A stretch of DNA of 64,000 nucleotides from Bacteroidota bacterium (GTDB lineage Bacteria > Bacteroidota > Bacteroidia > Chitinophagales > Chitinophagaceae): positions 23,006 through 87,005 of the forward strand of contig VGFK01000001.1 of the NCBI GenBank assembly GCA_016868895.1, written 5' to 3'. A program made the translations under genes and the position numbers. Positions within the stretch are counted from its first letter, which is position 1; each line of letters begins with the position of its first letter. This document shows positions 14,401-39,027 of the stretch, piece by piece. The notes below the pieces were generated by a model. The model saw only the letters and a list, made by a program, of their open reading frames with translations. It did not search any database and was not told the DNA's origin.

Positions 14401-15104
14401 ACGTTGCACAGTTAGCGAAATACATCGATCATTCTCTGTTGCATCCGACCATGACCGATCAGGATCTGGAAAACGGCTGCGCAACGGCCATTGCATATGG
14501 AACGGCGACCGTTTGCATCAAGCCCTATGCGGTGAAATGGGCAGCTGAGCGACTCAAAGGCAGCGGTGTGGGCGTGTGCACGGTGATTGGATTTCCGCAC
14601 GGCAGCAACACCACTGATCTGAAAGTGATTGAAACCATTGAAGCCTGCCGCAACGGCGCCTCCGAAATCGACATGGTGGTCAACATCGGAAAAGCAATCA
14701 GCGGCGATTGGGAATATGTTGCCCATGAAATCGATCAGATCCAATCGGCCTGTCTCGAACACAACGCCATCCTCAAGGTCATTTTTGAAAATGATTTTTT
14801 GAATACCGCACAGAAAATTGAACTCTGTCGCATCTGCTCCGAACTCCACGTGGCATTTGTAAAAACATCCACCGGATATGGATTTGTGAAGCAAGCCGAT
14901 GGATCGTTTGTCACCAAAGGAGCGACATTGGACGATCTGAAACTCATGCGGGATGCGTGTCCACCCGCCATCCAACTCAAAGCCGCCGGCGGGATTCGTT
15001 CTTTACCTGAACTGCTCGCGGCCATTGATGCCGGCGCCACACGCATTGGCTCAACTGCAACTGCATCAATATTAGAAGAAGCGCGTAAACAGTTTAGCCA
15101 GTGA
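14397..15104 (+). CDS. deoC: Deoxyribose-phosphate aldolase
   Basis: IDHSLL, VIGFPHG, EIDMV, FVKTSTG, KAAGGIR, RIGST. Confidence 0.96.
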   Translation: MNVAQLAKYIDHSLLHPTMTDQDLENGCATAIAYGTATVCIKPYAVKWAAERLKGSGVGVCTVIGFPHGSNTTDLKVIETIEACRNGASEIDMVVNIGKAISGDWEYVAHEIDQIQSACLEHNAILKVIFENDFLNTAQKIELCRICSELHVAFVKTSTGYGFVKQADGSFVTKGATLDDLKLMRDACPPAIQLKAAGGIRSLPELLAAIDAGATRIGSTATASILEEARKQFSQ

Positions 15105-21201: not shown

Positions 21202-22221
21202 TTATTTCCTTTTGATCAGGACAACAGATGGAACCGATCGTTCTACACCATTGTCACCTGGACGAACGGTCGCACGGTTATTGATAATCATGCTGGTAGA
21301 ACCTCCTCCATCTAAGTTAATCGCATTGGTGCAACCGAGTTCTTTGAGGAAAAGCGCCAGGTTAGCGAGATTGATCCCAGGATACCCGTTTGCGGTGTTA
21401 TCGCCCTCCACTGTCAGCAGAATGACTATACCTCCTGCAGTATACCCAATGGCAGATCGGGGTCGTGAAGTCGTATTATTAATGTCGATCAGCTCTTCTT
21501 TATCGGTTATGCGCACCTCCCCTCCTTTCAACAGCATCGGCGATCCACCTACCGCATAGGGCGGGCTCCACTCCGTTCCGCCCGCAGGAAAAGCTTCATC
21601 CGGAATGGGCTGAGGGGCTGCTCCAATGAGATTGGCAGCGGGTGCGGGATATTGATAGACCCGATCGTTTCCTGTGCCTATGTTATACATCCATACCGTA
21701 GAGGGATCACCCGTCGATGAAATTCCAAATGCAGCGCGGGTTGGATAATACGGTGTACTGGAACCATTGTAGGTGCGGTTGACTGATTTGATATTGGGAG
21801 AAAGGACGGTATTGTATTTGATCAAGCTATACGATTGGTTGCCTCCAAAATATCCTCCATTCATGCAGGCATAAACAATTCCAGTTTCTTGCGCATAAAA
21901 TTCGCTTGGTTTTTTAGACGTAGTCGACAACGTCGGTTTGAATTCCAGGTAACTGATCTTGGGATTGAAGGCCACTGCAAATGCCTTGATCTTAGCATCG
22001 CGAAACAAGGTATCGAATGTGTACGCTTCAATTCCCTCTGGAAATCCATTGGATAAGTTGATGTCGAATTTCCAACCGGCTGGAAGTGTGATGAGTTTTG
22101 CAACAGCTGGTGGTGTAGGAGGCGGAGCGGGATTAGGACCGGGACCAGCATTGGGAGATTTATTGCAGGCGACTGCAATTACAATCAATACCATCCATTT
22201 CAAAGCATGTACTCGTTTCAT
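21202..22221 (-). CDS. Phosphodiester glycosidase family (NAGPA/DUF2233) lipoprotein
   Basis: Lipobox VAC, Pro-rich linker, NGGYF, RPRSAIG, INLDGGGSTSM. Confidence 0.88.
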   Translation of the reverse strand: MKRVHALKWMVLIVIAVACNKSPNAGPGPNPAPPPTPPAVAKLITLPAGWKFDINLSNGFPEGIEAYTFDTLFRDAKIKAFAVAFNPKISYLEFKPTLSTTSKKPSEFYAQETGIVYACMNGGYFGGNQSYSLIKYNTVLSPNIKSVNRTYNGSSTPYYPTRAAFGISSTGDPSTVWMYNIGTGNDRVYQYPAPAANLIGAAPQPIPDEAFPAGGTEWSPPYAVGGSPMLLKGGEVRITDKEELIDINNTTSRPRSAIGYTAGGIVILLTVEGDNTANGYPGINLANLALFLKELGCTNAINLDGGGSTSMIINNRATVRPGDNGVERSVPSVVLIKRK

Positions 22222-23294
22222 TGGTATATCTGTTTTTTATACCGGTTCAATGTTTCATAATAAAAAAACACCTCCCCATTGAACCCGTATTTTCGATTCA
22301 ACTGAATCATCCCTGACAGCATCTCTTCACTCGCCTGATATCCATCGCCGAGTGAGACCAGAATACCAGGAAAAACTTTTTGTTTTAAAGATGGCGGGAC
22401 TTGTGATTGCAACTCGCCCAGAATTTTTTCATATGCATCCAACTTATACCGATAGAGTTGTGGAAAAACATAGTCGGCATAACCTCCCTTCAACCACTCT
22501 GGCCAATCCTGCAAGTATTGCTCTTTGGACCAAGGATAAATACTGGGAGCCCATGAAACAATACAAGATGGTTTTGCATTTTTGACAGCGCCATAGAGCT
22601 CTTTTCCAAACTCACTAAGACGATCAGCTTTCCATTGCAAAAACGAAAGATCGTTGGGAGTATCCATTGGAAGATCACGGCCAACAGATGTTTGATAGAG
22701 TTTGCGGGTATATGAATCCCAACCTCCTTCAGCAGGCATGGCAGGCAAACGATCATCACCCTGCACGCCATCTACGCTATACCTCTTCACTACTTCCAGT
22801 ACCAATTCTTTTAAGAGTTGTTGAGGTCCAGTATGCAACGCGTTCCACCAATAGAATCCATTTTTCTGCAACAGTTTTCCGGACCGGTCCCTTCCTACCC
22901 ACTCGGGATAACGACTGAACCAAGGAGAGGTGGTGTCGCGATAACCATAGGAAAATCCAAATTCAAACCACGCATGCACTTGAATGGAGCGAGCATGTGC
23001 AACATCGATCAATTCTTGAATTGGATCTCTGCCCGCAAACAATGGATCTTGTTCAATGCCGATGTAGCGCTTCACAACTGCGCTGGGATACATCGTGAGT
23101 CCTTTATTCCACACGACTACAAAAATGGTATTGATGCCTTGATCTTTGCATTGATCGACTGCACGCACGATACTGTCACGTGAATAGAGCACGCGACTTC
23201 CTACGTTGGTCATCCATATACCCCGAATGGGTTGCACTTGTGCAAAGGAAGACCATCCCGATAACAACAATAGAACAGCAAGCATGTATTTCAT
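22218..23294 (-). CDS. GHL10/DUF187-type glycoside hydrolase, SPI signal
   Basis: RGIWMT, VHAWFEFG, DGVQGDDR, PQLYR. Confidence 0.85.
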   Translation of the reverse strand: MKYMLAVLLLLSGWSSFAQVQPIRGIWMTNVGSRVLYSRDSIVRAVDQCKDQGINTIFVVVWNKGLTMYPSAVVKRYIGIEQDPLFAGRDPIQELIDVAHARSIQVHAWFEFGFSYGYRDTTSPWFSRYPEWVGRDRSGKLLQKNGFYWWNALHTGPQQLLKELVLEVVKRYSVDGVQGDDRLPAMPAEGGWDSYTRKLYQTSVGRDLPMDTPNDLSFLQWKADRLSEFGKELYGAVKNAKPSCIVSWAPSIYPWSKEQYLQDWPEWLKGGYADYVFPQLYRYKLDAYEKILGELQSQVPPSLKQKVFPGILVSLGDGYQASEEMLSGMIQLNRKYGFNGEVFFYYETLNRYKKQIYQ

Positions 23295-23295
23295 A

Positions 23296-24240
23296 TCATG
23301 CGTGATTGGTGTATTCTTTATAACGATTATAAAGATGATGGGCTTGGATGTAGGCCGACTGTGGGCTCATAAAATGCGAGAATTCAAATGTGATTGCTTC
23401 TTGGTAACCAGCGCGAGCGGCTACCTCCAATTTGAGTCGCATTTTTTCAAATTTGATCGGCAGGAATTTAATCGGCATGTCGCGGTCGAACGACTCGGTA
23501 TTGGTCCATGCATGCATTCCATGTGCATCCGCCAATTGTTTGTTCACCACCAGGTATTCTTCCAATTCGTGTATGTCCACATGGCCATCCTGAAAGGCAA
23601 CGACATCTACAGTTCCCTGGATGCCATCAAAAATTTCTTTCCATTCCCGCTCATGCTCCTGGATCGTTACGACTGCATCTTTGCGAAGCGCTGCATCGTG
23701 CGCCATGACTGCCTTGGGACCATCAATCCACGGAGAGATCAATGTTTGCAGGTGTTGGTCTTTTTCTTTACCGGCGAGTCCTAACGTGCGAAACGCCTCA
23801 ATGGCGCCTTTGGTTTTGCGACTGATTTCCATACTCAAGTACCAACCCTTGAATGAAGCGTGATGGCCGTAACGCGACCACACCTCATCGATCACATAGC
23901 GGTTGGCATCGATTTCGTGTTGCATATCCCCTGTATCCCAATATTTTCCTGAATCGTACAGTCCAAAATAAAAATCCATTCCATAGTGATCGGATAGCTC
24001 AAGAAACATATTCACCAGGTCTTCAGAAGGACGATGGCAATTGTATTGCTTGATTAAATATTCCGATGGGTAGGTGAGAAATTTGCGATATCCCGATCGG
24101 ATGAGGATCACTTTTCCAATACCAGTTGCTTTCATGTATTGAAAATCCTGCTCCCACTCTTTCCTACTCCAATTCTGATGTGGGATATCGTGGCTGATTT
24201 CGTCTAAAAAAGTACCTGTGATCTTCACCTGTTTAATCAT
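23296..24240 (-). CDS. DUF4434-family putative glycoside hydrolase (TIM barrel), no signal peptide
   Basis: ITGTFLDEISHDIPHQNW, GLYDSG, GWYLSME, FQDGH, WTNTESF, ITFEFSHFMSP. Confidence 0.78.
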   Translation of the reverse strand: MIKQVKITGTFLDEISHDIPHQNWSRKEWEQDFQYMKATGIGKVILIRSGYRKFLTYPSEYLIKQYNCHRPSEDLVNMFLELSDHYGMDFYFGLYDSGKYWDTGDMQHEIDANRYVIDEVWSRYGHHASFKGWYLSMEISRKTKGAIEAFRTLGLAGKEKDQHLQTLISPWIDGPKAVMAHDAALRKDAVVTIQEHEREWKEIFDGIQGTVDVVAFQDGHVDIHELEEYLVVNKQLADAHGMHAWTNTESFDRDMPIKFLPIKFEKMRLKLEVAARAGYQEAITFEFSHFMSPQSAYIQAHHLYNRYKEYTNHA

Positions 24241-26086
24241 TTAATCGATCCCACCAAAACTTTTTGAGCAGATACGAACTGACAAAAAAGATGATGGTCC
24301 ATATGGCCAACTGTGTATTGTTTTTAATCATGAAGTACATCGGAATCACCACCTGCGCCATCTGCCAAATCATTCCAATCACGACATTGAAAGCGTCACG
24401 TTTGAATGAAGTAGTTGATTTCCAGTCCGGTTCTTGTTGCAACAGCTTTTTGCGGATCGGTCCCCACCATCCCCACGGCTGGGTATCGCGATAAAATCGG
24501 ATCACCTGTTCTTCATTTTCCAATGGTGCAATATACGTTCCGATCACGCATCCTATCAGGGAAACCCCCAAGACTAAAGGAAACAAAAAGATGTCGGGCA
24601 AGTTGGGTGCTAACGCAAAAAGATCGAGCACCTGTGGTTTGAAAAAAAGAATGATGGTGCTGATGACAAGTCCTGCTACCATTCCCCCAAAATATCCATA
24701 CCCATTGAATCGCCACCAAACCCACTTGAGCATGTTGCCAGCAGCATATCCACCATAAAGAGCAGAAGTGATCCAGAGAGTCAGTCGATTCAAAGATTCG
24801 GCATTGAAACCAAAACCTATGCCTAAAATCACTAAGATCAAAGAGGCATATAAACTATAGCGAATTAGGACTTCCGCAGGGGCATCCGGACGAATGTATT
24901 TCTTATAGATGTCGTTGACGATGTATGCCGGTGCCGCATTGATGATCGCAGAGAAGGTCCCCATGAATGCCGCCAACAGACCGGCGATCAGCAGTCCCTT
25001 GAATCCGATGGGCACAAACTTATTGATTGCCAACGGCAAGACCTTTTCAAAATCGATGTTGGCACCCATTGCGGCCATCTCCGGCTGAAGGTAAACCAAT
25101 CCCAACACCGCGAACCCCGCCACCATCAGGTAACGCGGGATGTACATCACCAGAATGGTACTCATGCTCATCTTGGCAGCATCTGATGGCGTTCGTGTAC
25201 TGAGGATGCGCTGCATATCGTAACTCGGAACGGGACCCGCAATGGAAGCAAATATTCCTTTGAAAACCATCATCATCAGCAGCGCACCAAACCATCCAAA
25301 ACCATCTGAAGCAATTTTATCATTGACCAACGGATAGGGTGTGGCGGTCCAATCGAGATCAAGTTGCCAACCCGACCAAAGATTATCCCATCCAGCTGGA
25401 ACAACTGCCGCAATCTGTTCAGCTGTCACCTGTGTATACCCAATATAGGCTACCAATAAAGCACTGAGCGTCATCAACACAAACTGCAACACCTCCGTTG
25501 CCACAACACTGTACATCCCCCCTTTCACGGTATATACCGTGGTGATGCCACAAATCAACAGCGCATAGGCGCGTTCGTTGGGAATGACCCAATTGCCAAT
25601 GCGAAACGAAAGATCATAGGGAAGAATAGAAGTGCAGAACTTTCCGATGCCTTCAAAAAAATAGGCCATGAAGCCCATCACACTCACCAGCGCGAACACT
25701 ACTATAATTATGTAGGAAAGCGTTGCACCCCTTCCTTCTCCAAATCGAAAGCTGATCCACTGAGCACCCGTCATGGCATTGCTGCGCCGCATCCATACTG
25801 CCAGGAAAACAAATACAAAGACCTGATTCCATACCGGCCAGAGCCAAGGAATCCAGGCACTTTTTAATCCATAAACAAATAAAATCATGACCGTCCACAT
25901 GCTTCCACTGATGTCCCACATACCTGAAGCGTTGGAAAGTCCCAACGTATACCATTTCATAGAATTCCCACCGAGAAAATACGACTGTAAATCACGCGAC
26001 GCCAACCGGGATAAGTAAAAGCCCGCCACAAGCGTAAGACCCAAATATGCCAGGATGATCAGTAAATCAAGCAGATGAAGTGACAC
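24233..26086 (-). CDS. Sodium:solute symporter (SSS family)
   Basis: GTG start; many TM segments; YFLGGNSMKWY, MQRILS, LAAFMGT motifs. Confidence 0.9.
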   Translation of the reverse strand: MSLHLLDLLIILAYLGLTLVAGFYLSRLASRDLQSYFLGGNSMKWYTLGLSNASGMWDISGSMWTVMILFVYGLKSAWIPWLWPVWNQVFVFVFLAVWMRRSNAMTGAQWISFRFGEGRGATLSYIIIVVFALVSVMGFMAYFFEGIGKFCTSILPYDLSFRIGNWVIPNERAYALLICGITTVYTVKGGMYSVVATEVLQFVLMTLSALLVAYIGYTQVTAEQIAAVVPAGWDNLWSGWQLDLDWTATPYPLVNDKIASDGFGWFGALLMMMVFKGIFASIAGPVPSYDMQRILSTRTPSDAAKMSMSTILVMYIPRYLMVAGFAVLGLVYLQPEMAAMGANIDFEKVLPLAINKFVPIGFKGLLIAGLLAAFMGTFSAIINAAPAYIVNDIYKKYIRPDAPAEVLIRYSLYASLILVILGIGFGFNAESLNRLTLWITSALYGGYAAGNMLKWVWWRFNGYGYFGGMVAGLVISTIILFFKPQVLDLFALAPNLPDIFLFPLVLGVSLIGCVIGTYIAPLENEEQVIRFYRDTQPWGWWGPIRKKLLQQEPDWKSTTSFKRDAFNVVIGMIWQMAQVVIPMYFMIKNNTQLAIWTIIFFVSSYLLKKFWWDRLND

Positions 26087-26128
26087 AACGGATCTTTAAT
26101 AATTTTTATAAAGCTAATTATAAATAAT

Positions 26129-26148
26129 AATTATTTTTAAAAATAATT
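26129..26148. promoter_or_regulatory. Perfect 20-bp palindrome in a divergent promoter region; candidate ROK operator
   Basis: AATTATTTTTAAAAATAATT between the SSS and GHL10 starts. Confidence 0.45.
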
Positions 26149-26160
26149 TCCCCTTCAATC

Positions 26161-27330
26161 ATGCTTCAGCGTTGCTTAAAAATAGTGCGCGCAATCGGTA
26201 TTCTTCTGCTGTTTGCCATGTTAATAAGTGGATGTAAAAAAAACGCAGGTGAAGATCCCCCTGTTCGACCTCCCGGTCCGGTGGAACCGGTATGGGATCC
26301 GAATGCCATGCGCGGAGTGTGGATCACTACCACAGCGAGTACGGCGCTGGACAATCTGGATAACATTCAGGCAACGGTAACGGCCTGCAAAAAAGCAGGG
26401 ATCAACCATTTATTTGTAGTCGTTTACAACAACGCCCGCACGATTTATCCCAGCGAAGTCATGAACCGGTTGATTGGTGTTCGTCAGTTGGAAAAATTTT
26501 CTGGTCGCGATCCCCTCAAAGAAATCATCACTGCCGGAAAGGCTGCAGGATTGAAAGTCCATGCCTGGTTCGAATATGGTTTTTCATCATCCTACAGTGC
26601 ACAAGGTGGGTCGATCATTCGCGCAAAGCCCAATTGGGCGGCCCTGGATCAGAACAGAAGTTTGGTGGTGAAAAACGGGTTCGATTGGCTCAATGCGTTC
26701 GACCCCGAAGTGCAGCAGTTCATGATTGATCTGTTCAAAGAAGTTGCAACCAATTATGATGTAGATGGCGTGCAGGGCGATGACCGTCTCCCTGCTGTCC
26801 CTTCTTCTGCAGGTTACGATGATTATACCGTTGCAGAGTATAAAAAAGAGCACAGCAATGCATTTCCAACAACCAACATCAAAGATCCGGCTTGGCTAAA
26901 GTGGCGAGCTAATCGTTTGAATGGATACATGAAACGATTGTATACAGAAATGAAATCCATTCGATCAACGTTGCAAGTCACCATGTCACCTTCTCCCTAT
27001 CCGTTTTCGTTGGAGGAATACTTGCAGGATTGGCCAACGTGGGTGGACAGCGGATGGGTAGATGCCGTTATACCACAATGTTACCGATATGAAATTGGCC
27101 CCTATTCCACCACCCTTCAACAGCAAAAATCATATTACCGCAGCTCGACGATTCCCTTGTATCCGGGAGTGCTGGTAAAATCAGGAACCTATGTAGCCAG
27201 TGCAGGGTTTTTAACGCAAATGATTCAGGCAAATCGCAATGCAGGATTTAGAGGTGAGGTGTTCTTTTTTTACGAGGGACTCAAAGATGCATTGCCGTGG
27301 TTTGAAGGACAATATCCATTCATTAAATAA
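26161..27330 (+). CDS. GHL10/DUF187-type glycoside hydrolase, lipoprotein
   Basis: Lipobox ISGC, MRGVWIT, VHAWFEYG, DGVQGDDR, PQCYRY. Confidence 0.85.
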   Translation: MLQRCLKIVRAIGILLLFAMLISGCKKNAGEDPPVRPPGPVEPVWDPNAMRGVWITTTASTALDNLDNIQATVTACKKAGINHLFVVVYNNARTIYPSEVMNRLIGVRQLEKFSGRDPLKEIITAGKAAGLKVHAWFEYGFSSSYSAQGGSIIRAKPNWAALDQNRSLVVKNGFDWLNAFDPEVQQFMIDLFKEVATNYDVDGVQGDDRLPAVPSSAGYDDYTVAEYKKEHSNAFPTTNIKDPAWLKWRANRLNGYMKRLYTEMKSIRSTLQVTMSPSPYPFSLEEYLQDWPTWVDSGWVDAVIPQCYRYEIGPYSTTLQQQKSYYRSSTIPLYPGVLVKSGTYVASAGFLTQMIQANRNAGFRGEVFFFYEGLKDALPWFEGQYPFIK

Positions 27331-27337
27331 TCCAGTC

Positions 27338-29500
27338 ATGAAAAAAATTGGGACGGGTCTTCTGCTGATGTGGGTGGTGGCCTGCCAACAACCAGCTGTT
27401 GATCCATTGAAACAGGTAGATCTATTTTTAGGAACAGGTGGACACGGTCACGTGCATCCTGCAGCCACAGTGCCTTTTGGAATGGTGCAGGTGGGTCCCG
27501 ATAATGGAGTAGATGGATGGGATTGGTGCAGTGGATATCATTACAGCAGCACAACCATCGCCGGTTTCAGTCATACGCATCTCAGCGGAACAGGCATTGG
27601 AGATGGGTATGATATTTCGGTATTGCCATTGACCAATACCGATAGCATGCAAGAGGAGCGGATTCACCTTCCATTTTCACACGAGAATGAAACTGCCTTT
27701 CCGGGATACTACCGAGTGCAATTGGACAATGGAGTGAATTGTGAAATGACTGCAACAGACCGATCGGCCTTACACCGGTATCAGTTTCCAACCGATACCG
27801 GCTGGTTGCGTTGGGATCCGAGCTATCATCAGAACTGGGATGCAGTCGATTCAGCAGAGGTTTGGGCAGTGAACGATACCACCATTGCTGGATACAAGCA
27901 TTCAACCGGTTGGGCAAAGAATCAGCGCGTCTACTTTCAAGCAGTTTTCAATCAACCCATCAAACAAGTTGCATTCATTGGCGACAGCACGTGGGAAGTG
28001 GGCAATGAATTGAACGGAACAGGTAAAAAAGGAAGAAGCCTGAAACTCTTGCTGCAATTCGCATCAGCAACATTGCTTGAAGTGCGTGTAGGAATCAGCA
28101 ATGTGTCGTATGCGTCTGCTCAATTATCAAACACAGAAAATGCCGGTCGCAATTTTGAATCGGTTCAAACAGCAGCAGCGAGCAAATGGACAACTGCGCT
28201 ATCCTTCATCCGAATCAAAACAAAGGATGAGCAGATGATGAAACGATTTTATACTGCCGCCTATCGCACCTGTATGGCACCCTCCTTGTATTCGGACGGT
28301 GAAGGAAGGTATCGAAATGCGGATGGACGTCTGCTGCAAATGAAAAAAAATACTTCCAAGTACACGATTTTTTCAACCTGGGATACATTTCGAGCACTGC
28401 ACCCATTGTTTACCTTAACCCAACCCGATCGCGTTGCCGAATGGATGAACAGTTTACTGCAATTTTATCGCGATAATGGTCGATTGCCCGTGTGGGACAT
28501 CAGCAGTTGGGATGCCAACACCATGACAGGATTTCATTCTGTTCCCATTTTGGCCGATGCCATCTTAAAGAACATCAAGGGATTTGATCATGCAGAAGCT
28601 TATGCGGCCTTGAAAGCTTCAGCAGAACAACCCATACGGGGAACGCCCTACTTTAATCAGTTTGGGTACTTGCCACATGATTTACATGGGTGGAGTGTAA
28701 CCTATACCCTGGAATATGCATTCGATAATTGGTGCATTGCACAGGTGGCACGCAAATTGGGATTTACAGAAGAAGCAGTGCGTTATGAACAACGGGCAGA
28801 AAATTACAAAAACCTGTTCGATCCTGCTACTGGGTTCATGCGTGGAAAATTGAGTAATGGAAAATGGGTAGAGCCATTCGATCCCTATGTTTCAGAGCAT
28901 GGGTTTGAGGGACAATACATTGAAGGAACCGCTTGGCAGCACAGCTTTTTTGTCCCCCACAACATAAACGGATTAGCCGCATTATATGGCGGAAAGGAAC
29001 GATTGATTTCAAAATTGGATACGCTTTTCACAACAGCATCTGTTTTAAAAGGTGATAATGTTTCCATTGATGTAACAGGATTGATTGGCCAGTATGCACA
29101 CGGCAATGAACCCTCGCACCACATTGCGTATATGTATACTGCGTTGGGTAGGCCAGATAAAGCGGCAAAATGGATTCGTGTCATTGCCGACAGCATGTAC
29201 AAAACCGGTCCCGATGGATTATCCGGCAACGACGATTGCGGTCAGATGAGCGCGTGGTTTTTGTTCAGCACCATGGGTATGTATCCGATGAATCCGGCAT
29301 CTGGAGAATACGTAGTTGGATATCCTTTATTGGAAGAGGCCACGATTCAAGTATCCGGGGGGAAATCAGTTACCATTCAGCGCAAGGGAAATGGCAAGAG
29401 CGTAATCAAGATCATCATCAACGGGAAACAACAGGACAAGTGGGTGATTCAGCACCAGCAGTTGATGCAAGGAGGAACCATTGAATTGCATACAGAGTAA
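27338..29500 (+). CDS. GH92 alpha-mannosidase family, lipoprotein
   Basis: PFGMVQVGPD, GFSHTHLSGTG, STWDTFRALHP, YAHGNEPSHH, GNDDCGQMSAW; start trimmed to MKKIGTG. Confidence 0.95.
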   Translation: MKKIGTGLLLMWVVACQQPAVDPLKQVDLFLGTGGHGHVHPAATVPFGMVQVGPDNGVDGWDWCSGYHYSSTTIAGFSHTHLSGTGIGDGYDISVLPLTNTDSMQEERIHLPFSHENETAFPGYYRVQLDNGVNCEMTATDRSALHRYQFPTDTGWLRWDPSYHQNWDAVDSAEVWAVNDTTIAGYKHSTGWAKNQRVYFQAVFNQPIKQVAFIGDSTWEVGNELNGTGKKGRSLKLLLQFASATLLEVRVGISNVSYASAQLSNTENAGRNFESVQTAAASKWTTALSFIRIKTKDEQMMKRFYTAAYRTCMAPSLYSDGEGRYRNADGRLLQMKKNTSKYTIFSTWDTFRALHPLFTLTQPDRVAEWMNSLLQFYRDNGRLPVWDISSWDANTMTGFHSVPILADAILKNIKGFDHAEAYAALKASAEQPIRGTPYFNQFGYLPHDLHGWSVTYTLEYAFDNWCIAQVARKLGFTEEAVRYEQRAENYKNLFDPATGFMRGKLSNGKWVEPFDPYVSEHGFEGQYIEGTAWQHSFFVPHNINGLAALYGGKERLISKLDTLFTTASVLKGDNVSIDVTGLIGQYAHGNEPSHHIAYMYTALGRPDKAAKWIRVIADSMYKTGPDGLSGNDDCGQMSAWFLFSTMGMYPMNPASGEYVVGYPLLEEATIQVSGGKSVTIQRKGNGKSVIKIIINGKQQDKWVIQHQQLMQGGTIELHTE

Positions 29501-29516
29501 GTCCTCATTGAATGGA

Positions 29517-29550
29517 TAAAAATACGGGCCGCGCTTCGCGCGGCCCGTAT
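29517..29550. terminator. Perfect 13-bp hairpin between convergent GH92 and SusD
   Basis: ATACGGGCCGCGC-TTC-GCGCGGCCCGTAT; U-tract follows on the minus strand. Confidence 0.85.
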
Positions 29551-29574
29551 GGCTTTGTATCCTTAGAAGCTATT

Positions 29575-31356: not shown

Positions 31357-31374
31357 ATCTCGAGTTTTTCTTGT

Positions 31375-34300
31375 TTAGAAATTAACGTTCAACCCTGCTG
31401 TATAGGTCCGCATCACCGGATAGAATTCCGCATTGGCGTTATTGATCTCCGGATCAAATCCATTCCATGCCTTGGTTGATGTGAAGAGATTTTGTCCACT
31501 GACAAACACCCTTACTGAGCTGATTTTGGCTTTCTTCAACACGGATGTTGGAATGGTATATCCCAGGTTCACGTTTTTGAGACGGAAATAGGCTGCACTT
31601 CTGATCCACCAATCGGAAACCAGAAAATTGTTTCCACCAAAACCAGAAGGAAGCAATCGTGGGAAAAGTGCAGCTGTATTATCAGGTCTCCAGGAGTCCT
31701 TTTGAATATCCAACAAGGAGGCAATGAAATCAGAGCTGGCAAAAGGAACTGCACCCGTACCGCTGAGGTAATTGTTGCGCTTTCCAACGCCCTGACCAAA
31801 AATGTTCAAATCAAAATTGCCGTACGAAAGATTCAGGTTAATGCTGTACTCATAACGAGGGAATGCGTTACCCAAGAACGTACGGTCATTGGCATCGATC
31901 TTTCCATCGGGCTTGCCATCGGGACCGCTGAGATCTGCGTATTTCATATCACCGGGCTTAGGTCCTGTTGTGGGGACTGAGCTCCAAGGAATTCCAAACT
32001 GAACAGCAGAGTTTTTGATATCGTTGCTGTCGGCAAAAAATCCAAGTGATTGATATCCATAGAATGAACCCAACGCATATCCAACTGCACTGCGGGTAGA
32101 ACCTCCATCAAGGAAAGGAAGTCCCTCAATCAACCCATTCACGGTATTGCGCACATCAGAAAGCATGGCTGTAACATCCACATTGAGTTTCTTGAACGAT
32201 TTCTTGTAGTTCACTGAAACCTCCCAGCCTTTGTTTTCCATATTGCCAGCATTCACAAAAGGATTAGAGAGTCCACCAGCCGATGCAGGAAGAACACGCG
32301 GAAGAATCATGTCCTTCAGCGTCTTCACATAGTAATCAGCAGTGAACGTCAGTCCATTTTTCAAACTCAAATCCAATCCTACATTGAACTGTTTTGAAGT
32401 CTCCCAACCAATCAATGGATTAGGGAACTGCAAAATAGCAACACCGACGGTTGTTGCATTATTAAAGTATGCATTGGTTCCGTTGGTGGGATTGGAATAG
32501 TTGGATTGACCATAGAATGCATCAAACGCATAGAAGGAACTGAAGTTCTGGTTACCGTTCCCACCGATCGATGCTCTTAATTTACCAAATGTGAATACAT
32601 CAGAGAGACCACTCAGGAATTCTTCTTTGGTGAAGATCCATCCGGCGGATGCAGAACCAAAATTACCCCACTGCTTATCATTCGCTTGAGAAAAACGTGA
32701 AGAACCATCTCTTCTACCGTTCAACTCCAACAAGTACTTGTCTTTGAACGCATAGTTCACGCGACCAAAGAAACCCGCCAATGCCAATTCAGAAACACCT
32801 GCATTGTTATCGCGTGCGCCAGTACCCAAATTCAAATAAGGTTGATTGGGATTGATGAAGCCTTGGCGACTCGCACCGAAGAAATAGTTGCTGTACAATT
32901 CACTTTGTCCACCTGCCATAAATTTCAACGAATGATCTTCACCGAGTTTTACATTATAGGTAGCCTGTGCAGTATAGTTTTGGTAGGTGTCGTTTCTCCA
33001 GGCTTCTGACAACGAAGTGTTACCGGGCCATACTGCGATGCGGTCGTATCCTTGCGTTGTCAAATTGGGTTGGAAGATATCCGCATTCTTCACAAATGTC
33101 TTGGTATACGGATTACGCTTTTCACGCCCCCAATACGCCTCGATTTCCAATCCCTGAATTGGGCGGAGACTGAATCCGAATCGCGTCAACAACGTGTTGC
33201 CTTGTGTAACGGAATTACCGGTGGCTTCAGCCATGGCAATCGGATTGCGGTTGTTGGTCTGTGCAGCAGTACCGTACTGACCGGGACCGTATTTTCCACC
33301 CCCTAAGGCAGGGAGACCAATTGCCTGGCGAATGATAAACTCGGGACTTCCTGTTGAAGGATTGATGGTCTTATTGGAATTATAAGCCAGCACCCCGTTG
33401 AAGGTCAACCACTTGTTCAATTTGAATTCAGGATTGAAGCGGATATCAAATTTCTCAAAGCTGTTGTTGGGTATGAGCCCTTGCTGGTTCATGTAGCTAA
33501 ACGAAGTGAATACATTTACTTTTTCACCACCGGACGCCAATTGAACGTTGTGGTTTTGCAGCAACCCGCTATTGGTCAATACTTCCTTCAGCCAATCGGT
33601 ATTGATGACGTCCAGGTTGTTGCCTGCAGGATTGAAAACGTACTTGTCAATCAAGGTCTGGGGATACACAACTGCACTGGGATTGCCCGTACGGTTTTTT
33701 TCAGCTTCATTGCTGTACACCATGTGATCCACTGCATTTACGCGCTTGGGCAATGCAGTGAAGGATTGTTGGGTAAAGAAATTATTGTAGCTGACTTTCA
33801 TTCCCTGCTGGGTAGCCCGCTTCGTTTTCACTACAATGACCCCACTGGAAGCACGGTTACCATAAATCGCAGTCGATGCCGCATCTTTCAAGATCGTCAC
33901 ATTCTCAATGGCATTGGGATCAATTTGGTTTAAGGCGTCCAAACCTGAGCCGGTTGGCATGAGCAATCCATCGATCACTACGAGTGGGGTACTGTTGCCT
34001 TGAATGGAACTCTCACCGCGAATGCGGATGAAAGCACCATCAGCTCCGGGTCGGCCCGATTGTTGTTGCACCGTTACGCCAGGCGCCAATCCTTGCAGTA
34101 CCTGGCTGGCACTGGATACTTGACGTTTGGTGATCGTTGCATTGTTCAATGAAACAACCGATCCAGTTAAATTGGTACGGCGCTGCGTACCATATCCCAC
34201 TACGACCACCTCACTGAGGTTGGAGGCAGTAGATTGAAGCGCGATTTCCATGGATGCACCAGCGGCCTGCACTTCTTTGGTGCCAAAACCAATGGCGGTC

Positions 34301-34512
34301 ACCACAAGCGTCTGACCAGCAGATGCTTCAATGACGAAGTTTCCATCCACATTGGTGCGGGTGGCCTTGGTAGTACCCTTGACCAGCACCGTTGCTCCTT
34401 CAACAGGAGTGGAGTTTTCTGCGTTGATGACTCTTCCACCGACCTTGGTTTGGGCATATGCCAAGTGAAGGGTCGCAGCAAAGAGCATCAACAGAAGCGT
34501 TAGTTTTTTCAT
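31375..34512 (-). CDS. SusC/RagA TonB-dependent transporter
   Basis: EVVVVGYGTQ, LKDAASTAIYG.RASSGV, GRRDGSSRF, C-terminal NVNF. Confidence 0.97.
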   Translation of the reverse strand: MKKLTLLLMLFAATLHLAYAQTKVGGRVINAENSTPVEGATVLVKGTTKATRTNVDGNFVIEASAGQTLVVTAIGFGTKEVQAAGASMEIALQSTASNLSEVVVVGYGTQRRTNLTGSVVSLNNATITKRQVSSASQVLQGLAPGVTVQQQSGRPGADGAFIRIRGESSIQGNSTPLVVIDGLLMPTGSGLDALNQIDPNAIENVTILKDAASTAIYGNRASSGVIVVKTKRATQQGMKVSYNNFFTQQSFTALPKRVNAVDHMVYSNEAEKNRTGNPSAVVYPQTLIDKYVFNPAGNNLDVINTDWLKEVLTNSGLLQNHNVQLASGGEKVNVFTSFSYMNQQGLIPNNSFEKFDIRFNPEFKLNKWLTFNGVLAYNSNKTINPSTGSPEFIIRQAIGLPALGGGKYGPGQYGTAAQTNNRNPIAMAEATGNSVTQGNTLLTRFGFSLRPIQGLEIEAYWGREKRNPYTKTFVKNADIFQPNLTTQGYDRIAVWPGNTSLSEAWRNDTYQNYTAQATYNVKLGEDHSLKFMAGGQSELYSNYFFGASRQGFINPNQPYLNLGTGARDNNAGVSELALAGFFGRVNYAFKDKYLLELNGRRDGSSRFSQANDKQWGNFGSASAGWIFTKEEFLSGLSDVFTFGKLRASIGGNGNQNFSSFYAFDAFYGQSNYSNPTNGTNAYFNNATTVGVAILQFPNPLIGWETSKQFNVGLDLSLKNGLTFTADYYVKTLKDMILPRVLPASAGGLSNPFVNAGNMENKGWEVSVNYKKSFKKLNVDVTAMLSDVRNTVNGLIEGLPFLDGGSTRSAVGYALGSFYGYQSLGFFADSNDIKNSAVQFGIPWSSVPTTGPKPGDMKYADLSGPDGKPDGKIDANDRTFLGNAFPRYEYSINLNLSYGNFDLNIFGQGVGKRNNYLSGTGAVPFASSDFIASLLDIQKDSWRPDNTAALFPRLLPSGFGGNNFLVSDWWIRSAAYFRLKNVNLGYTIPTSVLKKAKISSVRVFVSGQNLFTSTKAWNGFDPEINNANAEFYPVMRTYTAGLNVNF

Positions 34513-34536
34513 GTGACTGTTTGTGTTGATTAATTG

Positions 34537-36417
34537 CTATAATGATTGAATTTCTCCTTGGTGATCAATGGAAACGCGCATGAATGGATCGATCAACCGA
34601 TCGATCAATACAGCAAATTGTCCCCTTGTTATAAACTTCGTCGGCTCCATACCCATGATTCCAGCTGCTTCAGATGCCGACCATACGACAGAATCTTCTT
34701 CCTTTAATTGCAGTCCGTATCGTAGACTTGCAGTTTGTACTACTAGTTGCTTGGCTTCCGCAATCGACAACCACAATCCCTTTGCATTGAAGTCGCTCAG
34801 CCACTCCTTTCCATTGCTTCGCAGGGTATCTACATTTACGTGCTGATCAGGATAGAACCAGGTTTGATTGGCCCATTTATACGGTATTCCTTTACCTCTG
34901 AGCAATCCGGTAGCTCCAACTCGATGGATACTTGAGAACTGTGGATGCGTAGGTGCAACATCTATATAAGGAAGGATCATGGCCTTTTGCTCAAGGAGTA
35001 AAGTTTGTACTGCTCTTATTGGGACTGCTCGAGGAGCAACTCCTTTTTTAACAGCTAAAGCTGCCAACGCACCAGCAGCCTGACCAATCAGCATCACACA
35101 GGGTTGCAATCGGGTTGCACCATTGATGATGTTACTGACACTGATATTTTTTTCAGCAGAAATGACTCCATCCATTGTTGCAGGAATGAGTGCGCCCAAT
35201 GGAATAGTGAAAGAGGGAACCGGATAAAAATCCAATTGCTGGGGAGCTAGTGGATTTTTTTTATGGTGATGATCCACCGGATAATCGCCTACTGCAATTC
35301 CAGTGCGGTAAAGATCTGTTGCCTGCTCAAAGGGTTGAGCAAGATGCAACATATTGAATCGTACGACTCCTTTTATTCTGCGGGACTCACGGTGGTATGG
35401 AATCAATGCAAGTTTGTCACTTGTTGGAAATTCATCATCTGCCAATCCTAAATGACGGTAACCCAATTGGTGTTGAATGAAATAAACGAATCGAAGCGTT
35501 TGTTCTTTAGCCAAAGCATATCCGCTGTCTTGTGCAGCACGATCTAGACCAATGGGATTAAAATAAAAATCATTCCCATAGTTGGGCCAGTTCAACATGA
35601 ATTTTCCATTGGGGAGTCGACCGTAATTGAGCAGGGTTTGCGCATTTACTGTCGGTTTCTTGCGCGAGGAATCAGTATGATAATCGCTACAAGCTCCGTC
35701 GAATTCTGCCGGTGAATAGTTTCGCGGTTTTACGATCGTGCAGTCCGCATCTTTTCCATAATCCTTGAGAATTGCAACGTAGGTGAGGTCCTGAATGATT
35801 CCGGCTCCGTTTCCTACTTCAATCTGTTCAGTTCGTGCCACCTCAGGTTCCAATCCCACGTCAAACACAACACCTGCGGCAGCAATGGCATCCCCTAATT
35901 CCGTTGCATCAATCACAACATTTGCACGTACTTCGAGTTTATCTCCAGTAACGCTATGGATAAACTGTGCACCCTGAACCTTGTTGCTATCCTTCATCAC
36001 ATTGGACAATGTCCATCCGAATTCGGTAACCAATGCCGCCTCTTTAGCAACCATGGTCTTAAAAATACGGTCTGCCACATGCGGCTCAAATAAGGTATTG
36101 CTCACCCATCCAGTTTCAACTTTGGTTGGCCCTCCATAATGGGTATAGATCATTTCCCTGAACTCATTCCAAATTCCTGATGGAATAGTGTGGTTACCAT
36201 CAAATGCAGAAACTCCTGCAGCACTGATCATTCCTCCCAACCAGGACGTTTCTTCCACAAGCAGCGTCTTAACACCTGATCGCGCACTTTGAAGAGCGGC
36301 AGTAACGCCCGATGCTCCTCCACCGATAACCAATACATCCGTCTGTACCTGCTTGATTTCTGAACAGGAGTTCAGCAGCAGTGCAACAACAATGATGATG
36401 TGGTTAAGACTTTTCAT
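34537..36417 (-). CDS. FAD-dependent oxidoreductase (FAD_oxidored-like), predicted lipoprotein
   Basis: Lipobox LNSC, VIGGGASG, DATELGD, YHRESRRI, GDYPVDHH, TRLQPCVMLIGQAAG. Confidence 0.85.
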   Translation of the reverse strand: MKSLNHIIIVVALLLNSCSEIKQVQTDVLVIGGGASGVTAALQSARSGVKTLLVEETSWLGGMISAAGVSAFDGNHTIPSGIWNEFREMIYTHYGGPTKVETGWVSNTLFEPHVADRIFKTMVAKEAALVTEFGWTLSNVMKDSNKVQGAQFIHSVTGDKLEVRANVVIDATELGDAIAAAGVVFDVGLEPEVARTEQIEVGNGAGIIQDLTYVAILKDYGKDADCTIVKPRNYSPAEFDGACSDYHTDSSRKKPTVNAQTLLNYGRLPNGKFMLNWPNYGNDFYFNPIGLDRAAQDSGYALAKEQTLRFVYFIQHQLGYRHLGLADDEFPTSDKLALIPYHRESRRIKGVVRFNMLHLAQPFEQATDLYRTGIAVGDYPVDHHHKKNPLAPQQLDFYPVPSFTIPLGALIPATMDGVISAEKNISVSNIINGATRLQPCVMLIGQAAGALAALAVKKGVAPRAVPIRAVQTLLLEQKAMILPYIDVAPTHPQFSSIHRVGATGLLRGKGIPYKWANQTWFYPDQHVNVDTLRSNGKEWLSDFNAKGLWLSIAEAKQLVVQTASLRYGLQLKEEDSVVWSASEAAGIMGMEPTKFITRGQFAVLIDRLIDPFMRVSIDHQGEIQSL

Positions 36418-36429
36418 TCTATGGATTCC

Positions 36430-37647
36430 TTAATTAGTTGTTGTGGATGATAATGAATTAAATGATTGCGCAACCATGAGGAGTCCGCGCGGAATATGAA
36501 AACAGCCCTTCCATTTACCCCCTTTTGCAGTGTGCAAGGGCTCACCGTTGCGGTGGAGGTATCCAAACCACTCTCCATAGATTGGGTCTCGGAATTTTTC
36601 CCAGGTATATTCATGAACTTTTTCAAACCAACTTAAACAACGTGTATCTCCGGTAAAAGCATAACCTTTTGCTAATGCGACCAATGTTTCGATGTGTACC
36701 CACCACAGTTTCTGATCCCACTCTAACTGCTGCATGGGTTTTTGAAATAAATCCAAAAAGTAAAAAATTCCACCCTGCTCATTGTCCCAGGCATGATTAA
36801 CTGTATGGAGCATGATGTCTTTTGCCTTAGTAATCAGGGCCGGATCGTTGATGCGCTTGCCAATATCCATGATGAACCACATGGCTTCGATGGCATGGCC
36901 ATGATTAAGGATTCTTCCTTCAAATGAATCGACGATTGAATGGTCGGTGCTGACATTTTCAACCACGAGTCCGTGTTCGGGTCGATAAAATACATTCATC
37001 ACCTGGTCCACTACTTCTGGAATGATCGCATCCACGCGATCTTTTCCCAAGATGTGTTCCATCTCAAGAGCCAGGTTGCACAAGATCATGGGGAGGGTGA
37101 AATTCTTCATCGGTCGCGTCCCAGTTATCGTTTTATTGAACTGACCTTTCCAGTTGTGCTGTCGCTTCCAAATACTTTCAAACGTTTCAGCTGCAATCTG
37201 CTGATAGGTTGCACTTGGCGCTATGGCATGCAATGCAGAGAAACCCATCGCCGCAAAACAATCGCTAAAAATATTGTGCGCATGGGTAAGTGGCTTACCA
37301 TCTGCTTGCAATGAAAAATGCCAATGTCCTTGTTCGTTTCTACCATGCTGCTGCAAGAATCGGGCTCCATGCAAAGCAAATTCCCGCCACTCATCACGCT
37401 GCTGAACTACTCGGAACATGGTTGAGAAGGTCCATACTTGTCGGCCCTGCAACCAAACAAACTTATCGGTATCGTATACCTCTCCCTCACGCGTCAGGCA
37501 AGTAAAATACCCCCCATGTTGAGCATCCTTGCTATACCGCAACCAAAACGGAAGAATGTTATTGCACAATTCATCGACATAAAGTCGTCCGTAATTCATC
37601 CCGCCTACTGCAGTTTGAAGGGAGGGCCAAGTCGTTGCCTGTTCCAT
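36430..37647 (-). CDS. N-acylglucosamine 2-epimerase (AGE family)
   Basis: GGYFTCL, WLQGRQVW, GHAIEAMW, KLWWVHIE, KGGKWKGCFHIPR; alternative start at 37599. Confidence 0.92.
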   Translation of the reverse strand: MEQATTWPSLQTAVGGMNYGRLYVDELCNNILPFWLRYSKDAQHGGYFTCLTREGEVYDTDKFVWLQGRQVWTFSTMFRVVQQRDEWREFALHGARFLQQHGRNEQGHWHFSLQADGKPLTHAHNIFSDCFAAMGFSALHAIAPSATYQQIAAETFESIWKRQHNWKGQFNKTITGTRPMKNFTLPMILCNLALEMEHILGKDRVDAIIPEVVDQVMNVFYRPEHGLVVENVSTDHSIVDSFEGRILNHGHAIEAMWFIMDIGKRINDPALITKAKDIMLHTVNHAWDNEQGGIFYFLDLFQKPMQQLEWDQKLWWVHIETLVALAKGYAFTGDTRCLSWFEKVHEYTWEKFRDPIYGEWFGYLHRNGEPLHTAKGGKWKGCFHIPRGLLMVAQSFNSLSSTTTN

Positions 37648-37788
37648 TAACAAAATTTATTTTCAAAGAACGTAATTTATAAATATTTTACTTAAAGAGT
37701 CAACTTTATTAATTTTTTTATTAATTAATGTCCCTTCGAACTGAACAAAAAAGCCAGTCGTTTCGGGAAAAGAGAATAAATTAGTCCG

Positions 37789-39027
37789 ATGGCAAGCAAG
37801 CGCAAGAAGGTCAATTTTGAATTGTTCAGCCTGGGTTCATCGTCGGGTGTGGCCTACAAGAATAAGGCCCTGAAGAAGCAGATCATCCAGTTCATCGATA
37901 ACCGGGGCAGTAGTTCCATAACCGAATTGAGCAAAGAACTCACCACCAGCGTACCCAAAACAACGGCATTGGTGGGCGAATTGATCACGGAGTGGTTACT
38001 ACAGGATGAGGGTAAAATCGATTCTACTGGAGGGAGAAGAGCAAGTGTCTTTGGACTGGTGTCGGATGCTTGCTTTTTTTTAGGTGTGGATGTAAAGAAG
38101 TACCATATTAATGTTGGGTTGATGGATTTTCAAAAAAGGATGGTGACCCACAAGGACAAGTTGCCCTTCAAGATGGAGAACACAGCAGAGTCTCTTAAAA
38201 AACTCATACAACTCATCAAGGATTTTATCTCCCATTCACAAATTGAGCGTGCACGAATTTTAGGCTGCGGAATCAATCTAACCGGAAGAATCAATCAGCA
38301 TACCGGTCACAGCTATAGTTTTTACCATTTCAAGGAAGAGCCTTTGGCTGAGGTGATTCAGCAGGAAATCGGAATTCCTGCGTATTTGGAAAACGATTCC
38401 CGCTCCATGGCCTTTGGAGAATTCTATTCAGGTGAATTGAGCAGTGAACGCAATGTGTTATTCGTAAACCTCGACTATGGCATCGGATTGGGCATTGTGG
38501 TGGATGGAAAAATCTATTATGGTCGTTCAGGATTCAGCGGCGAGTTCGGGCATATTCCGTTGTTCGACAATGAAATCATCTGCCACTGCGGAAAGAAAGG
38601 ATGCCTGGAGACGGAAGCCTCCGGTTGGGCCCTTATTCGAAAATTCAAGGAACGGCTGGAAAAAGGCTCTTCTTCATCGGCAGTGAAAAAAAATACATCT
38701 GCCAGCGAGATTACCCTGGAGGACATCATCACGGCTGCCAAAAACGAAGACACCCTCTGCATTGAATTATTGAGCGAGATCGGGGAACAGCTGGGAAAGG
38801 GATTGGCCGTGCTGATCAATGTTTTCAATCCGGAGCTGATCATCCTCGGCGGAACACTTTCAGAGACCGGCGATTACATTCGGCTTCCGGCACGAAGCGT
38901 ATTGAATAAATTTTCATTGAGCCTGATGAACAACGATACTTCGCTTCGGATATCGCGATTGGGCGAGCGTGCAGGTGTAATAGGAGCCTGCCTCATCGCC
39001 CGCTTAAAAGTCATCAACAACACTTAA
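37789..39027 (+). CDS. ROK-family transcriptional repressor
   Basis: N-terminal wHTH, STGGRR, GEFGHIP, CHCGKKGCLETEAS zinc motif. Confidence 0.93.
   Translation: MASKRKKVNFELFSLGSSSGVAYKNKALKKQIIQFIDNRGSSSITELSKELTTSVPKTTALVGELITEWLLQDEGKIDSTGGRRASVFGLVSDACFFLGVDVKKYHINVGLMDFQKRMVTHKDKLPFKMENTAESLKKLIQLIKDFISHSQIERARILGCGINLTGRINQHTGHSYSFYHFKEEPLAEVIQQEIGIPAYLENDSRSMAFGEFYSGELSSERNVLFVNLDYGIGLGIVVDGKIYYGRSGFSGEFGHIPLFDNEIICHCGKKGCLETEASGWALIRKFKERLEKGSSSSAVKKNTSASEITLEDIITAAKNEDTLCIELLSEIGEQLGKGLAVLINVFNPELIILGGTLSETGDYIRLPARSVLNKFSLSLMNNDTSLRISRLGERAGVIGACLIARLKVINNT

Follow-up and report, generated by a model that had tools for sequence, protein, structure and literature searches.

Positions 21202–39027 of a 64,000-nucleotide stretch of Bacteroidota bacterium DNA (family Chitinophagaceae; GenBank assembly GCA_016868895.1, contig VGFK01000001.1, forward-strand positions 23,006 to 87,005) hold 11 genes that, as judged from their sequences, form a polysaccharide utilization locus (PUL) and a reduced copy of a widespread locus family. 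We call the whole 64,000-nucleotide stretch the window and use its numbering unless another contig is named. The reading of this locus that we tentatively favor is that it serves the use of an envelope glycan of other microbes, built from N-acetylmannosamine (ManNAc) and N-acetylglucosamine (GlcNAc), here also with α-mannose, and joined to its anchor by an N-acetylhexosamine (HexNAc)-1-phosphate bond. Murein-linked secondary wall polysaccharides, with their ManNAc-GlcNAc-1-phosphate linkage units, are the best-fitting class of substrate.

The evidence for this reading includes the following. The locus encodes an adjacent SusC-like and SusD-like pair, with 18 nt between the two genes, alongside exported glycan-degrading enzymes (GH92, two GHL10 proteins and an NAGPA-like protein, all with lipoprotein or type I signals). 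The NAGPA-like protein keeps the sugar-phosphate loop of the vertebrate enzyme that cleaves GlcNAc-1-phosphodiesters. The DUF4434 protein, a candidate glycosidase, belongs to a family whose genes commonly adjoin that of a ManNAc/GlcNAc epimerase.

Organization of the locus

A preliminary description of the window, made from its sequence alone, had listed the gene set as three arms and a divergent ROK gene. All 11 genes were confirmed, and each family was assigned by Pfam or NCBIfam at the expected coordinates:

21202–22221, minus strand, NAGPA-like phosphodiester glycosidase (PF09992); lipoprotein (signal ...VIAVAC) with a proline-rich tether
22218–23294, minus strand, GHL10a, a TIM-barrel glycosidase-like protein (PF02638, 186.7 bits); type I signal, predicted periplasmic
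23296–24240, minus strand, DUF4434, a TIM-barrel protein (PF14488, 265.9 bits); no signal peptide, predicted cytoplasmic
24233–26086, minus strand, sodium:solute symporter (SSS), an inner-membrane importer (PF00474 and TIGR00813)
26161–27330, plus strand, GHL10b, a candidate endo-acting enzyme (PF02638, 200.9 bits); lipoprotein (...LISGC) with a proline-rich tether
27338–29500, plus strand, GH92 α-mannosidase (PF17678, 241.7 bits; PF07971, 526.2 bits; TIGR01180, 608 bits); lipoprotein (MKKIG...VVAC)
29575–31356, minus strand, SusD-like surface glycan-binding lipoprotein (PF07980 and PF14322)
31375–34512, minus strand, SusC-like TonB-dependent transporter (CarboxypepD_reg, Plug and barrel domains)
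34537–36417, minus strand, PF12831 FAD-binding protein (302 bits); lipoprotein (...LLNSC)
36430–37653, minus strand, N-acyl-D-glucosamine 2-epimerase (AGE; PF07221), predicted cytoplasmic
37789–39027, plus strand, ROK-family regulator, NagC/Mlc-like (PF00480), with an N-terminal DNA-binding extension

These genes fall into four transcription units (ROK; AGE-FAD-SusC-SusD; GHL10b-GH92; SSS-DUF4434-GHL10a-NAGPA), with housekeeping genes on both sides, namely an Lpd-like gene and ProRS. Spacing inside the arms ranges from −8 to +24 nt, including overlaps of 4 nt between NAGPA and GHL10a and of 8 nt between DUF4434 and SSS. The arms are set apart by two divergent intergenic regions of 74 nt (SSS/GHL10b) and 135 nt (AGE/ROK), and a predicted terminator lies where GH92 and SusD converge:

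29522–29550, both strands, bidirectional terminator hairpin with a 13-bp stem that includes 10 G-C pairs

The N-terminal signals mark NAGPA, GHL10b, GH92, SusD and the FAD protein as lipoproteins and give GHL10a a type I signal peptide; DUF4434, AGE and ROK carry no signal and are predicted to be cytoplasmic. Two starts need care. The GH92 open reading frame (ORF) opens at 27239, and we place its likely true start at 27338 because the orthologue in relative L091 is called at 720 amino acids, the length that this start gives together with a lipoprotein signal. The AGE probably starts a few codons past the TTG at 37653 (within 37599–37653), as its orthologues align from residue 3 to residue 23.

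Upstream of the locus and unrelated to it, the window encodes a BshC-type bacillithiol biosynthesis gene (15101–16699), which lies beside genes for a DeoC-like aldolase and an ABC ATPase.

Conservation and sister loci

The gene set is not a random cluster, because the identical order recurs in six Chitinophagales genomes and in the closest metagenome contig, that is, in 7/7 of the related genomes examined. In this order, ROK is divergent from AGE-FAD-SusC-SusD, followed by GH92-GHL10 divergent from importer-DUF4434-GHL10-NAGPA; the metagenome contig shares the flanks of the window as well. The same-order relatives additionally have genes for DUF5009 and for an SGNH esterase, and a GH20-like gene is present in some of them. 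In the window genome (1.75 Mb, 95.8% complete, 3–4 SusD genes), there is no DUF5009, GH20-like or AmpG-like gene anywhere and no esterase gene at the locus, all of which occur in larger relatives. By its gene content, the locus is therefore a trimmed copy retained by a streamlined genome.

Shuffled versions occur across Bacteroidota, including BT0433-BT0438 of Bacteroides thetaiotaomicron, and the locus type is found in soil, freshwater and gut members of the phylum. A genome scan confirmed at least 577 DUF4434 matches, and the number of matching proteins at E ≤ 1e-20 is 5,827. For partner statistics, we clustered all ORFs of 83 loci around DUF4434 orthologues. The most frequent partners are GHL10 (62 loci), SGNH esterases (54), SusD (47), HGSNAT-like DUF5009 proteins (40) and AGE (40), and the importers are AmpG-like MFS (30), SSS (29) or sugar-porter MFS (14) proteins. 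PF12831 (22), NAGPA (20), ROK (19) and GH92 (18) are rarer, and GH20, NagB-II and CstA are present in some loci. Certain neighbors are nearly fixed: AGE adjoins DUF4434 in 33 of 40 loci, GHL10 adjoins NAGPA in 18 of 20, and GH92 adjoins GHL10 in 15 of 18. In sister loci, the PF12831 gene is often divergent from ROK.

Candidate operators at both divergent promoter regions

The ROK protein scores 203 bits against the NagC profile and 194 bits against the Mlc profile, over residues 32–405 and so including the N-terminal part, and corresponds to 'NanR' (BT0433) of B. thetaiotaomicron. An unseeded motif search drifted into G+C-rich noise, and a seeded position weight matrix was used in its place. 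The matrix describes a 23-bp AT-rich operator, about TTwTTAA-N7-TTAwTAA, and was built from 44 sites in other genomes, with the window genome and its nearest relative left out of the training set. Scanning both strands of the whole 1.75-Mb genome placed one candidate in each divergent region:

37704–37726, no strand assigned, CTTTATTAATTTTTTTATTAATT, in the promoter region between the divergent AGE and ROK genes; strong candidate for a ROK operator (18.7 bits)
26092–26114, no strand assigned, in the promoter region between the divergent SSS and GHL10b genes; weaker candidate for a ROK operator (10.3 bits)

The AGE/ROK site is the top match genome-wide, ahead of a runner-up of 12.9 bits within argS, and the SSS/GHL10b site ranks fifth of the seven matches above 9 bits. 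We took the three matches that follow the top one (in argS, guaB and a spurious-looking ORF) as chance, all being inside ORFs; the genome-wide matches above 9 bits gave no wider regulon beyond the locus. In relatives, a site of 13–22 bits is present in 6/6 ROK/AGE regions from genomes outside matrix training, and 15 of the 18 ROK upstream regions in our first locus set carry one. Homologous sites of 17–24 bits occupy the SSS/GHL10b position in related loci, and this intergenic region is conserved in relative L004. Because candidate operators sit in both of the divergent regions that drive all four units, the ROK protein is predicted to control, and thus co-regulate, all arms, as the preliminary description of a ROK-controlled PUL had proposed. 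This prediction has good in silico support, which is not proof.

A perfect 20-bp palindrome, AATTATTTTTAAAAATAATT, adjoins the weaker operator at 26129–26148, lies 13 nt upstream of the GHL10b start and is kept in L004. Its score with the operator model is under 9 bits, and it may thus represent either an operator of a second type or an element of the promoter.

Exported proteins

The NAGPA-like protein matches PF09992 with 95.6 bits against a cut-off of 25. Its residues 304–308 form the invariant DGGGS, within an AINLDGGGS stretch that is the same as in vertebrate NAGPA, and DGGGS is kept in 19 of 20 orthologues. In human NAGPA, this loop binds GlcNAc-1-phosphate (NAGPA paper). The idea of a phosphodiester-linked substrate gains sequence support because the sugar-phosphate loop is retained.

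GHL10a and GHL10b are 43% identical to one another, and their sole solved relative is Cwp19 of Clostridioides difficile. Both retain its DGVxxDD motif, as DGVQGDD. The gene for Cwp19 belongs to a wall-polymer locus, and the protein resembles the poly-N-acetylglucosamine (PNAG) hydrolase PgaB and has no equivalent of the usual nucleophile (Cwp19 study).

The closest Protein Data Bank (PDB) entry to the GH92 protein is 6F8Z (4e-163); CcMan5 (2XSG) scores only 1.8e-38. The nearest structures, 6F8Z and 6F91, were deposited as putative α-1,2-mannosidases and are, we take it, B. thetaiotaomicron enzymes. Assignment to the phosphomannan-uncapping CcMan5 subtype was ruled out by this remote similarity to CcMan5. 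Phosphomannan, which had been put forward as one possible target, is accordingly not specifically indicated, the GH92 protein being nearest to ordinary B. thetaiotaomicron-type α-mannosidases.

The model of the PF12831 protein is confident (predicted local distance difference test score of 87), and a fold search returned generic flavin-domain matches only, with template modeling scores of at most 0.33.

Importer and cytoplasmic proteins

The position of the SSS symporter is taken in other loci by an AmpG-like MFS or sugar-porter MFS transporter, and a transporter gene lies within three to four genes of DUF4434 in 69 of 82 loci. We regard the DUF4434 protein as a candidate glycosidase for an imported ManNAc-containing disaccharide or oligosaccharide. 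It is about 64–68% identical to PDB entry 4H41, which is B. thetaiotaomicron BT_0435, and orthologues across Bacteroidota are 67–89% identical. In its structural model, E138 is predicted to follow strand 4 (residues 130–135) and E249 to follow strand 7 (residues 243–248), as in the retaining glycosidases of clan GH-A; the two motifs are conserved in 77/82 and 70/82 orthologues, respectively. Besides 4H41, the nearest fold is that of the GHL10 protein Cwp19.

Escherichia coli YbcH is a full-length DUF4434 protein (235 bits). The nfrBA-ybcH system requires UDP-ManNAc, and its product is thought to be a ManNAc-based polymer (NGR literature). The YbcH operon ties DUF4434 to ManNAc a second time, on independent genomic grounds. 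The idea that ManNAc is involved is strengthened because DUF4434 adjoins AGE in most loci that carry both and because YbcH sits in a ManNAc-polymer operon.

The AGE itself reaches 597.4 bits against the NCBIfam AGE equivalog, just short of the cut-off of 600. It is far closer to solved GlcNAc 2-epimerases (PDB 6F04, 1e-147; 2GZ6, 9e-145) than to cellobiose 2-epimerases (1e-22 or worse). A CstA-type transporter gene is found no more than two genes away from AGE in loci L039, L049, L050, L057, L062 and L080, and in five of the six it is the immediate neighbor of AGE. CstA of E. coli imports pyruvate or peptides. Its place beside AGE is a hint that some forms of the locus also yield pyruvate, derived for instance from pyruvylated ManNAc, or peptides as co-products.

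Sialic acid, muropeptide and GlcNAc routes in the rest of the genome

The preliminary description held that this is not a standard sialic acid locus, and the genome agrees. No BNR_2 (GH33 sialidase) match exceeds the cut-off in the whole genome, and the genome holds no candidate for a NanA-type lyase, with two DHDPS-family genes only. One of these looks like dapA, to go by the two-copy pattern. The second, within 5000–20000 of contig C9, lies beside an SSS symporter gene and proline-racemase-like and aldehyde-dehydrogenase-like ORFs, the latter two identified by eye, in what looks like a hydroxyproline-type catabolic cluster. We rejected a sialic acid locus on the absence of sialidase and NanA-type lyase, and for the same reason the ManNAc used by AGE must have another origin.

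The AnmK and MurQ genes lie outside the locus, and no operator match above 9 bits is near them. The marks of muropeptide recycling, an AmpG-type importer at the locus and AnmK and MurQ under shared control, are thus absent.

The NagB-II gene (contig C4, 148695–150593) encodes a glucosamine-6-phosphate isomerase domain fused to a PIG-L deacetylase domain. No canonical NagA exceeds the cut-off in the genome, and the PIG-L domain may supply the deacetylase step.

A proposed pathway and its rivals

Gene families and predicted locations are the data behind the following steps, and all reactions are our proposals. The NAGPA-like lipoprotein would cleave the HexNAc-1-phosphate glycosidic bond and free the chain, which the GHL10b lipoprotein would cut into fragments for uptake as oligosaccharides through SusC/SusD. 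In the periplasm, GH92 would remove α-mannose and GHL10a would trim further, while the FAD lipoprotein would carry out an undefined, possibly oxidative, step. The SSS symporter would bring a small HexNAc product into the cytoplasm, where DUF4434 would hydrolyze it to yield ManNAc. AGE would convert ManNAc to GlcNAc, which would feed into the ROK-kinase and NagB-II route, whose genes lie outside the locus. A HexNAc-derived effector would free the ROK repressor from the AT-rich operators at both divergent regions and so switch on the four units. The HexNAc theme is supported by the sister-locus partners GH20, NagB-II, HGSNAT-like DUF5009 proteins and SGNH esterases.

No phosphatase or phosphodiesterase was recognized in the 83 loci, where several partner clusters without a Pfam match could hide one. 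Poly(sugar-1-phosphate) chains are therefore unlikely as the bulk substrate, and a single linkage-unit phosphodiester, with the phosphate left on the murein side, fits better. Of the earlier proposal of a phosphodiester-linked glycan, the bond itself gains support from the retained AINLDGGGS loop, and the sugar-phosphate polymer does not fare well. Similarly, the ManNAc of the suggested teichoic-acid linkage units draws strength from the DUF4434-AGE adjacency and from YbcH. Cyanobacterial peptidoglycan bears, according to older literature, a phosphodiester-linked polysaccharide with mannosamine, glucosamine and mannose. This polymer would fit too if the bacterium lives in freshwater, a habitat that we assume here along with that composition.

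Several observations weigh against the favored reading. NAGPA, GH92 and the FAD protein are missing from many sister loci, and none of them defines the common substrate of the family. The PF09992 match spans profile positions 60–168 of 169, that is, the C-terminal two thirds of the domain, and the phosphate-binding Arg and Thr of human NAGPA could not be confidently mapped: a Ser stands opposite the Thr in the A-R-T-A segment of the vertebrate enzymes, and the rest, like the Glu/Thr that bind the N-acetyl group, lies beyond the aligned stretch. YbcH and the window DUF4434 share Pfam membership and short motifs only, with no significant BLASTP match, and a profile from the Bacteroidota DUF4434 clade did not align YbcH significantly. 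The GH92 protein is of the ordinary α-mannosidase type, the reading gives no account of the role of the PF12831 protein, and the second operator is weak, at 10.3 bits. Linkage units are also a minor part of wall mass, and a whole PUL for them is not obviously economical.

A bolder version joins the separate proposals. The NAGPA homologue would cut a universal HexNAc-1-phosphate-to-muramic-acid anchor, GHL10 would depolymerize the freed chain, DUF4434 would be the first N-acetylmannosaminidase and the PF12831 lipoprotein would perform a new extracytoplasmic, flavin-dependent amino-sugar step. We consider this combination rather unlikely.

Peptidoglycan scavenging is an unlikely alternative in which the GHL10 proteins are muramidases or lytic transglycosylases, NAGPA together with the sister-locus esterases and DUF5009 strips lysis-blocking modifications and DUF4434 acts like NagZ on an imported HexNAc disaccharide. 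Cwp19, the sole studied GHL10 protein with a structure, lyses Micrococcus cells and has been reported to be a lytic transglycosylase, but it is 13–66 times slower than lysozyme, and its authors doubted murein as its main substrate. SGNH esterases, HGSNAT-like DUF5009 proteins and GH20 among the sister loci suit this scheme, as does the AmpG-like MFS importer in 30 of them, although the importer here is an SSS symporter. AnmK and MurQ could complete the pathway, yet they are encoded at other sites without a nearby operator match, and the locus has no amidase or peptidase. Murein contains neither ManNAc, which leaves the tight DUF4434-AGE pairing unexplained, nor mannose, which leaves GH92 unexplained.

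We judge about as improbable an exopolysaccharide substrate that is secreted and ManNAc-based, the Nfr/NGR glycan of Proteobacteria being one example. GHL10 would act as its endo-hydrolase, imported ManNAc oligomers would be cleaved by DUF4434, and the resulting ManNAc would pass to AGE for conversion. YbcH of nfrBA-ybcH is itself a full-length DUF4434 protein, the NGR glycan is postulated to be ManNAc-based and DUF4434 and AGE are usually adjacent; the NGR cluster of Achromobacter also encodes O-acetyltransferases, which would match the sister-locus esterases. However, YbcH and the window DUF4434 are very distant, the structure of the glycan is undefined, and neither GH92 nor an NAGPA-like protein with a conserved sugar-phosphate loop is explained.

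Eukaryotic phosphorylated mannose glycans, either protist or algal high-mannose N-glycans capped with GlcNAc-1-P-6-Man or yeast-type phosphomannan, are a still poorer candidate. NAGPA would uncap them and GH92 would trim them, and indeed GlcNAc-1-P-6-Man is the substrate for which the NAGPA reaction is defined, N-glycans and mannan are what the GH92 family acts on and GH20-like genes occur in sister loci. Against this, no endo-β-N-acetylglucosaminidase (GH18/GH85) or phosphatase was recognized, AGE, DUF4434 and the two GHL10 proteins would be without a role, the GH92 protein is remote from the uncapping CcMan5, and NAGPA and GH92 are both missing from most sister loci.

A pathway for sialic or another nonulosonic acid, with DUF4434 as a non-canonical lyase that yields ManNAc, is very improbable: the in silico 'NanR; sialic acid' label of the BT0433 regulon, the epimerization of ManNAc by AGE when Bacteroides uses sialic acid and the TIM-barrel aldolases among weak DUF4434 fold matches are outweighed by a genome without sialidase and NanA-type lyase, by the GH-A-like glutamate pair of DUF4434, by the periplasmic place of YbcH in a polysaccharide secretion system and by the fact that B. 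thetaiotaomicron, despite its counterpart genes, is not known to grow on sialic acid.

The 18-kb locus is kept in a genome of 1.75 Mb with only 3–4 SusD genes. Identification of the substrate would show how Bacteroidota recycle the amino-sugar polymers of other microbes and would correct the 'sialic acid' label on the B. thetaiotaomicron genes. It could also supply enzymes that act on ManNAc linkages and on bacterial sugar-1-phosphate anchors, the first of their kind and useful tools for cell-wall glycobiology. If the bolder, anchor-cutting version were true, it would mean a previously undescribed feeding on the wall-anchored glycopolymers of other bacteria, first functions for four protein families and a named substrate for BT0433-BT0438. 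These ideas are directly testable, as structures have been solved or modeled with confidence and the locus is carried by cultured bacteria open to genetic work; cultured carriers include Lacibacter, Chitinophaga, Niastella, Pedobacter and B. thetaiotaomicron.

Comparison with known systems

Checks of the literature and of synteny returned no characterized PUL with this gene set, which the preliminary description had taken to be a candidate new system, and found the same gene order in the seven relatives. The locus is indeed an uncharacterized PUL variant, but it is not unique to the window, belonging as it does to a widespread family. In the literature, we found no function for DUF4434, Bacteroidota GHL10 or PF12831 and no N-acetylmannosaminidase, and no characterized system for DUF4985, DUF5009, DUF5018 or BT0434-BT0438. 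The expectation of undescribed activities holds for GHL10, DUF4434 and PF12831, which have no defined reaction in this setting.

The nearest described relative is BT0433-BT0438 of B. thetaiotaomicron VPI-5482, a computationally predicted ROK 'NanR' regulon labeled 'sialic acid; GlcNAc' (Ravcheev et al. 2013, PMC3878776). Its members are ROK, Nudix, DUF4434, MFS, AGE and GH89 genes, of which only GH89 has been assayed. Both gene groups combine ROK, a DUF4434 orthologue, an inner-membrane sugar importer and AGE, and neither contains a lyase. The importer is an MFS protein there and an SSS symporter here, and the Nudix protein and the GH89 α-N-acetylglucosaminidase belong to B. thetaiotaomicron. 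As listed, BT0433-BT0438 lacks the SSS symporter, two GHL10 proteins, NAGPA, GH92, PF12831 and SusC/SusD of the window locus.

The sialic acid clusters of Bacteroides and Tannerella (nanLET-rokA; nanOU-nanH) likewise have an AGE-type epimerase and ROK-family proteins, and that of Tannerella also has SusC/SusD-type uptake. The window locus and its genome differ from them in having no sialidase and no NanL/NanA, and the locus has GHL10, NAGPA, GH92 and FAD proteins in addition.

With PULs of the Sus paradigm, the locus shares the SusC/SusD pair, lipoprotein enzymes at the surface and in the periplasm, an importer in the inner membrane, finishing enzymes in the cytoplasm and a regulator encoded on the spot. 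Its regulator is a ROK repressor, in contrast to the hybrid two-component system, SusR-type regulator or extracytoplasmic function (ECF) sigma/anti-sigma pair of those systems, and, GH92 aside, its enzymes come from families that lack a defined reaction (GHL10, DUF4434, bacterial NAGPA-like and PF12831).

Among single proteins, the NAGPA-like enzyme resembles the vertebrate uncovering enzyme NAGPA (GlcNAc-1-phosphodiester α-N-acetylglucosaminidase) in its PF09992 domain and identical AINLDGGGS loop. It differs in being a bacterial lipoprotein without an EGF stalk and with very low similarity outside the C-terminal part of the domain; human and bacterial NAGPA proteins are less than 20% identical (NAGPA paper). 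The window GHL10 proteins share the GHL10 TIM barrel and the DGVxxDD motif with C. difficile Cwp19 (PDB 5OQ2), which is linked to cell-wall glycans. Their similarity to it is low (phmmer E-values of 1e-9 to 3e-11), and Cwp19, whose own true substrate is uncertain, is a Gram-positive S-layer autolysin and no PUL enzyme. Finally, the window DUF4434 protein and E. coli YbcH are both full-length DUF4434 proteins with GWY(I/L)SxE and QDG motifs, and both are tied to ManNAc by their genomic setting. They differ in place and role: YbcH belongs to a secretion system and is located in the periplasm or anchored in the membrane, and the window protein is predicted to be a catabolic protein of the cytoplasm.

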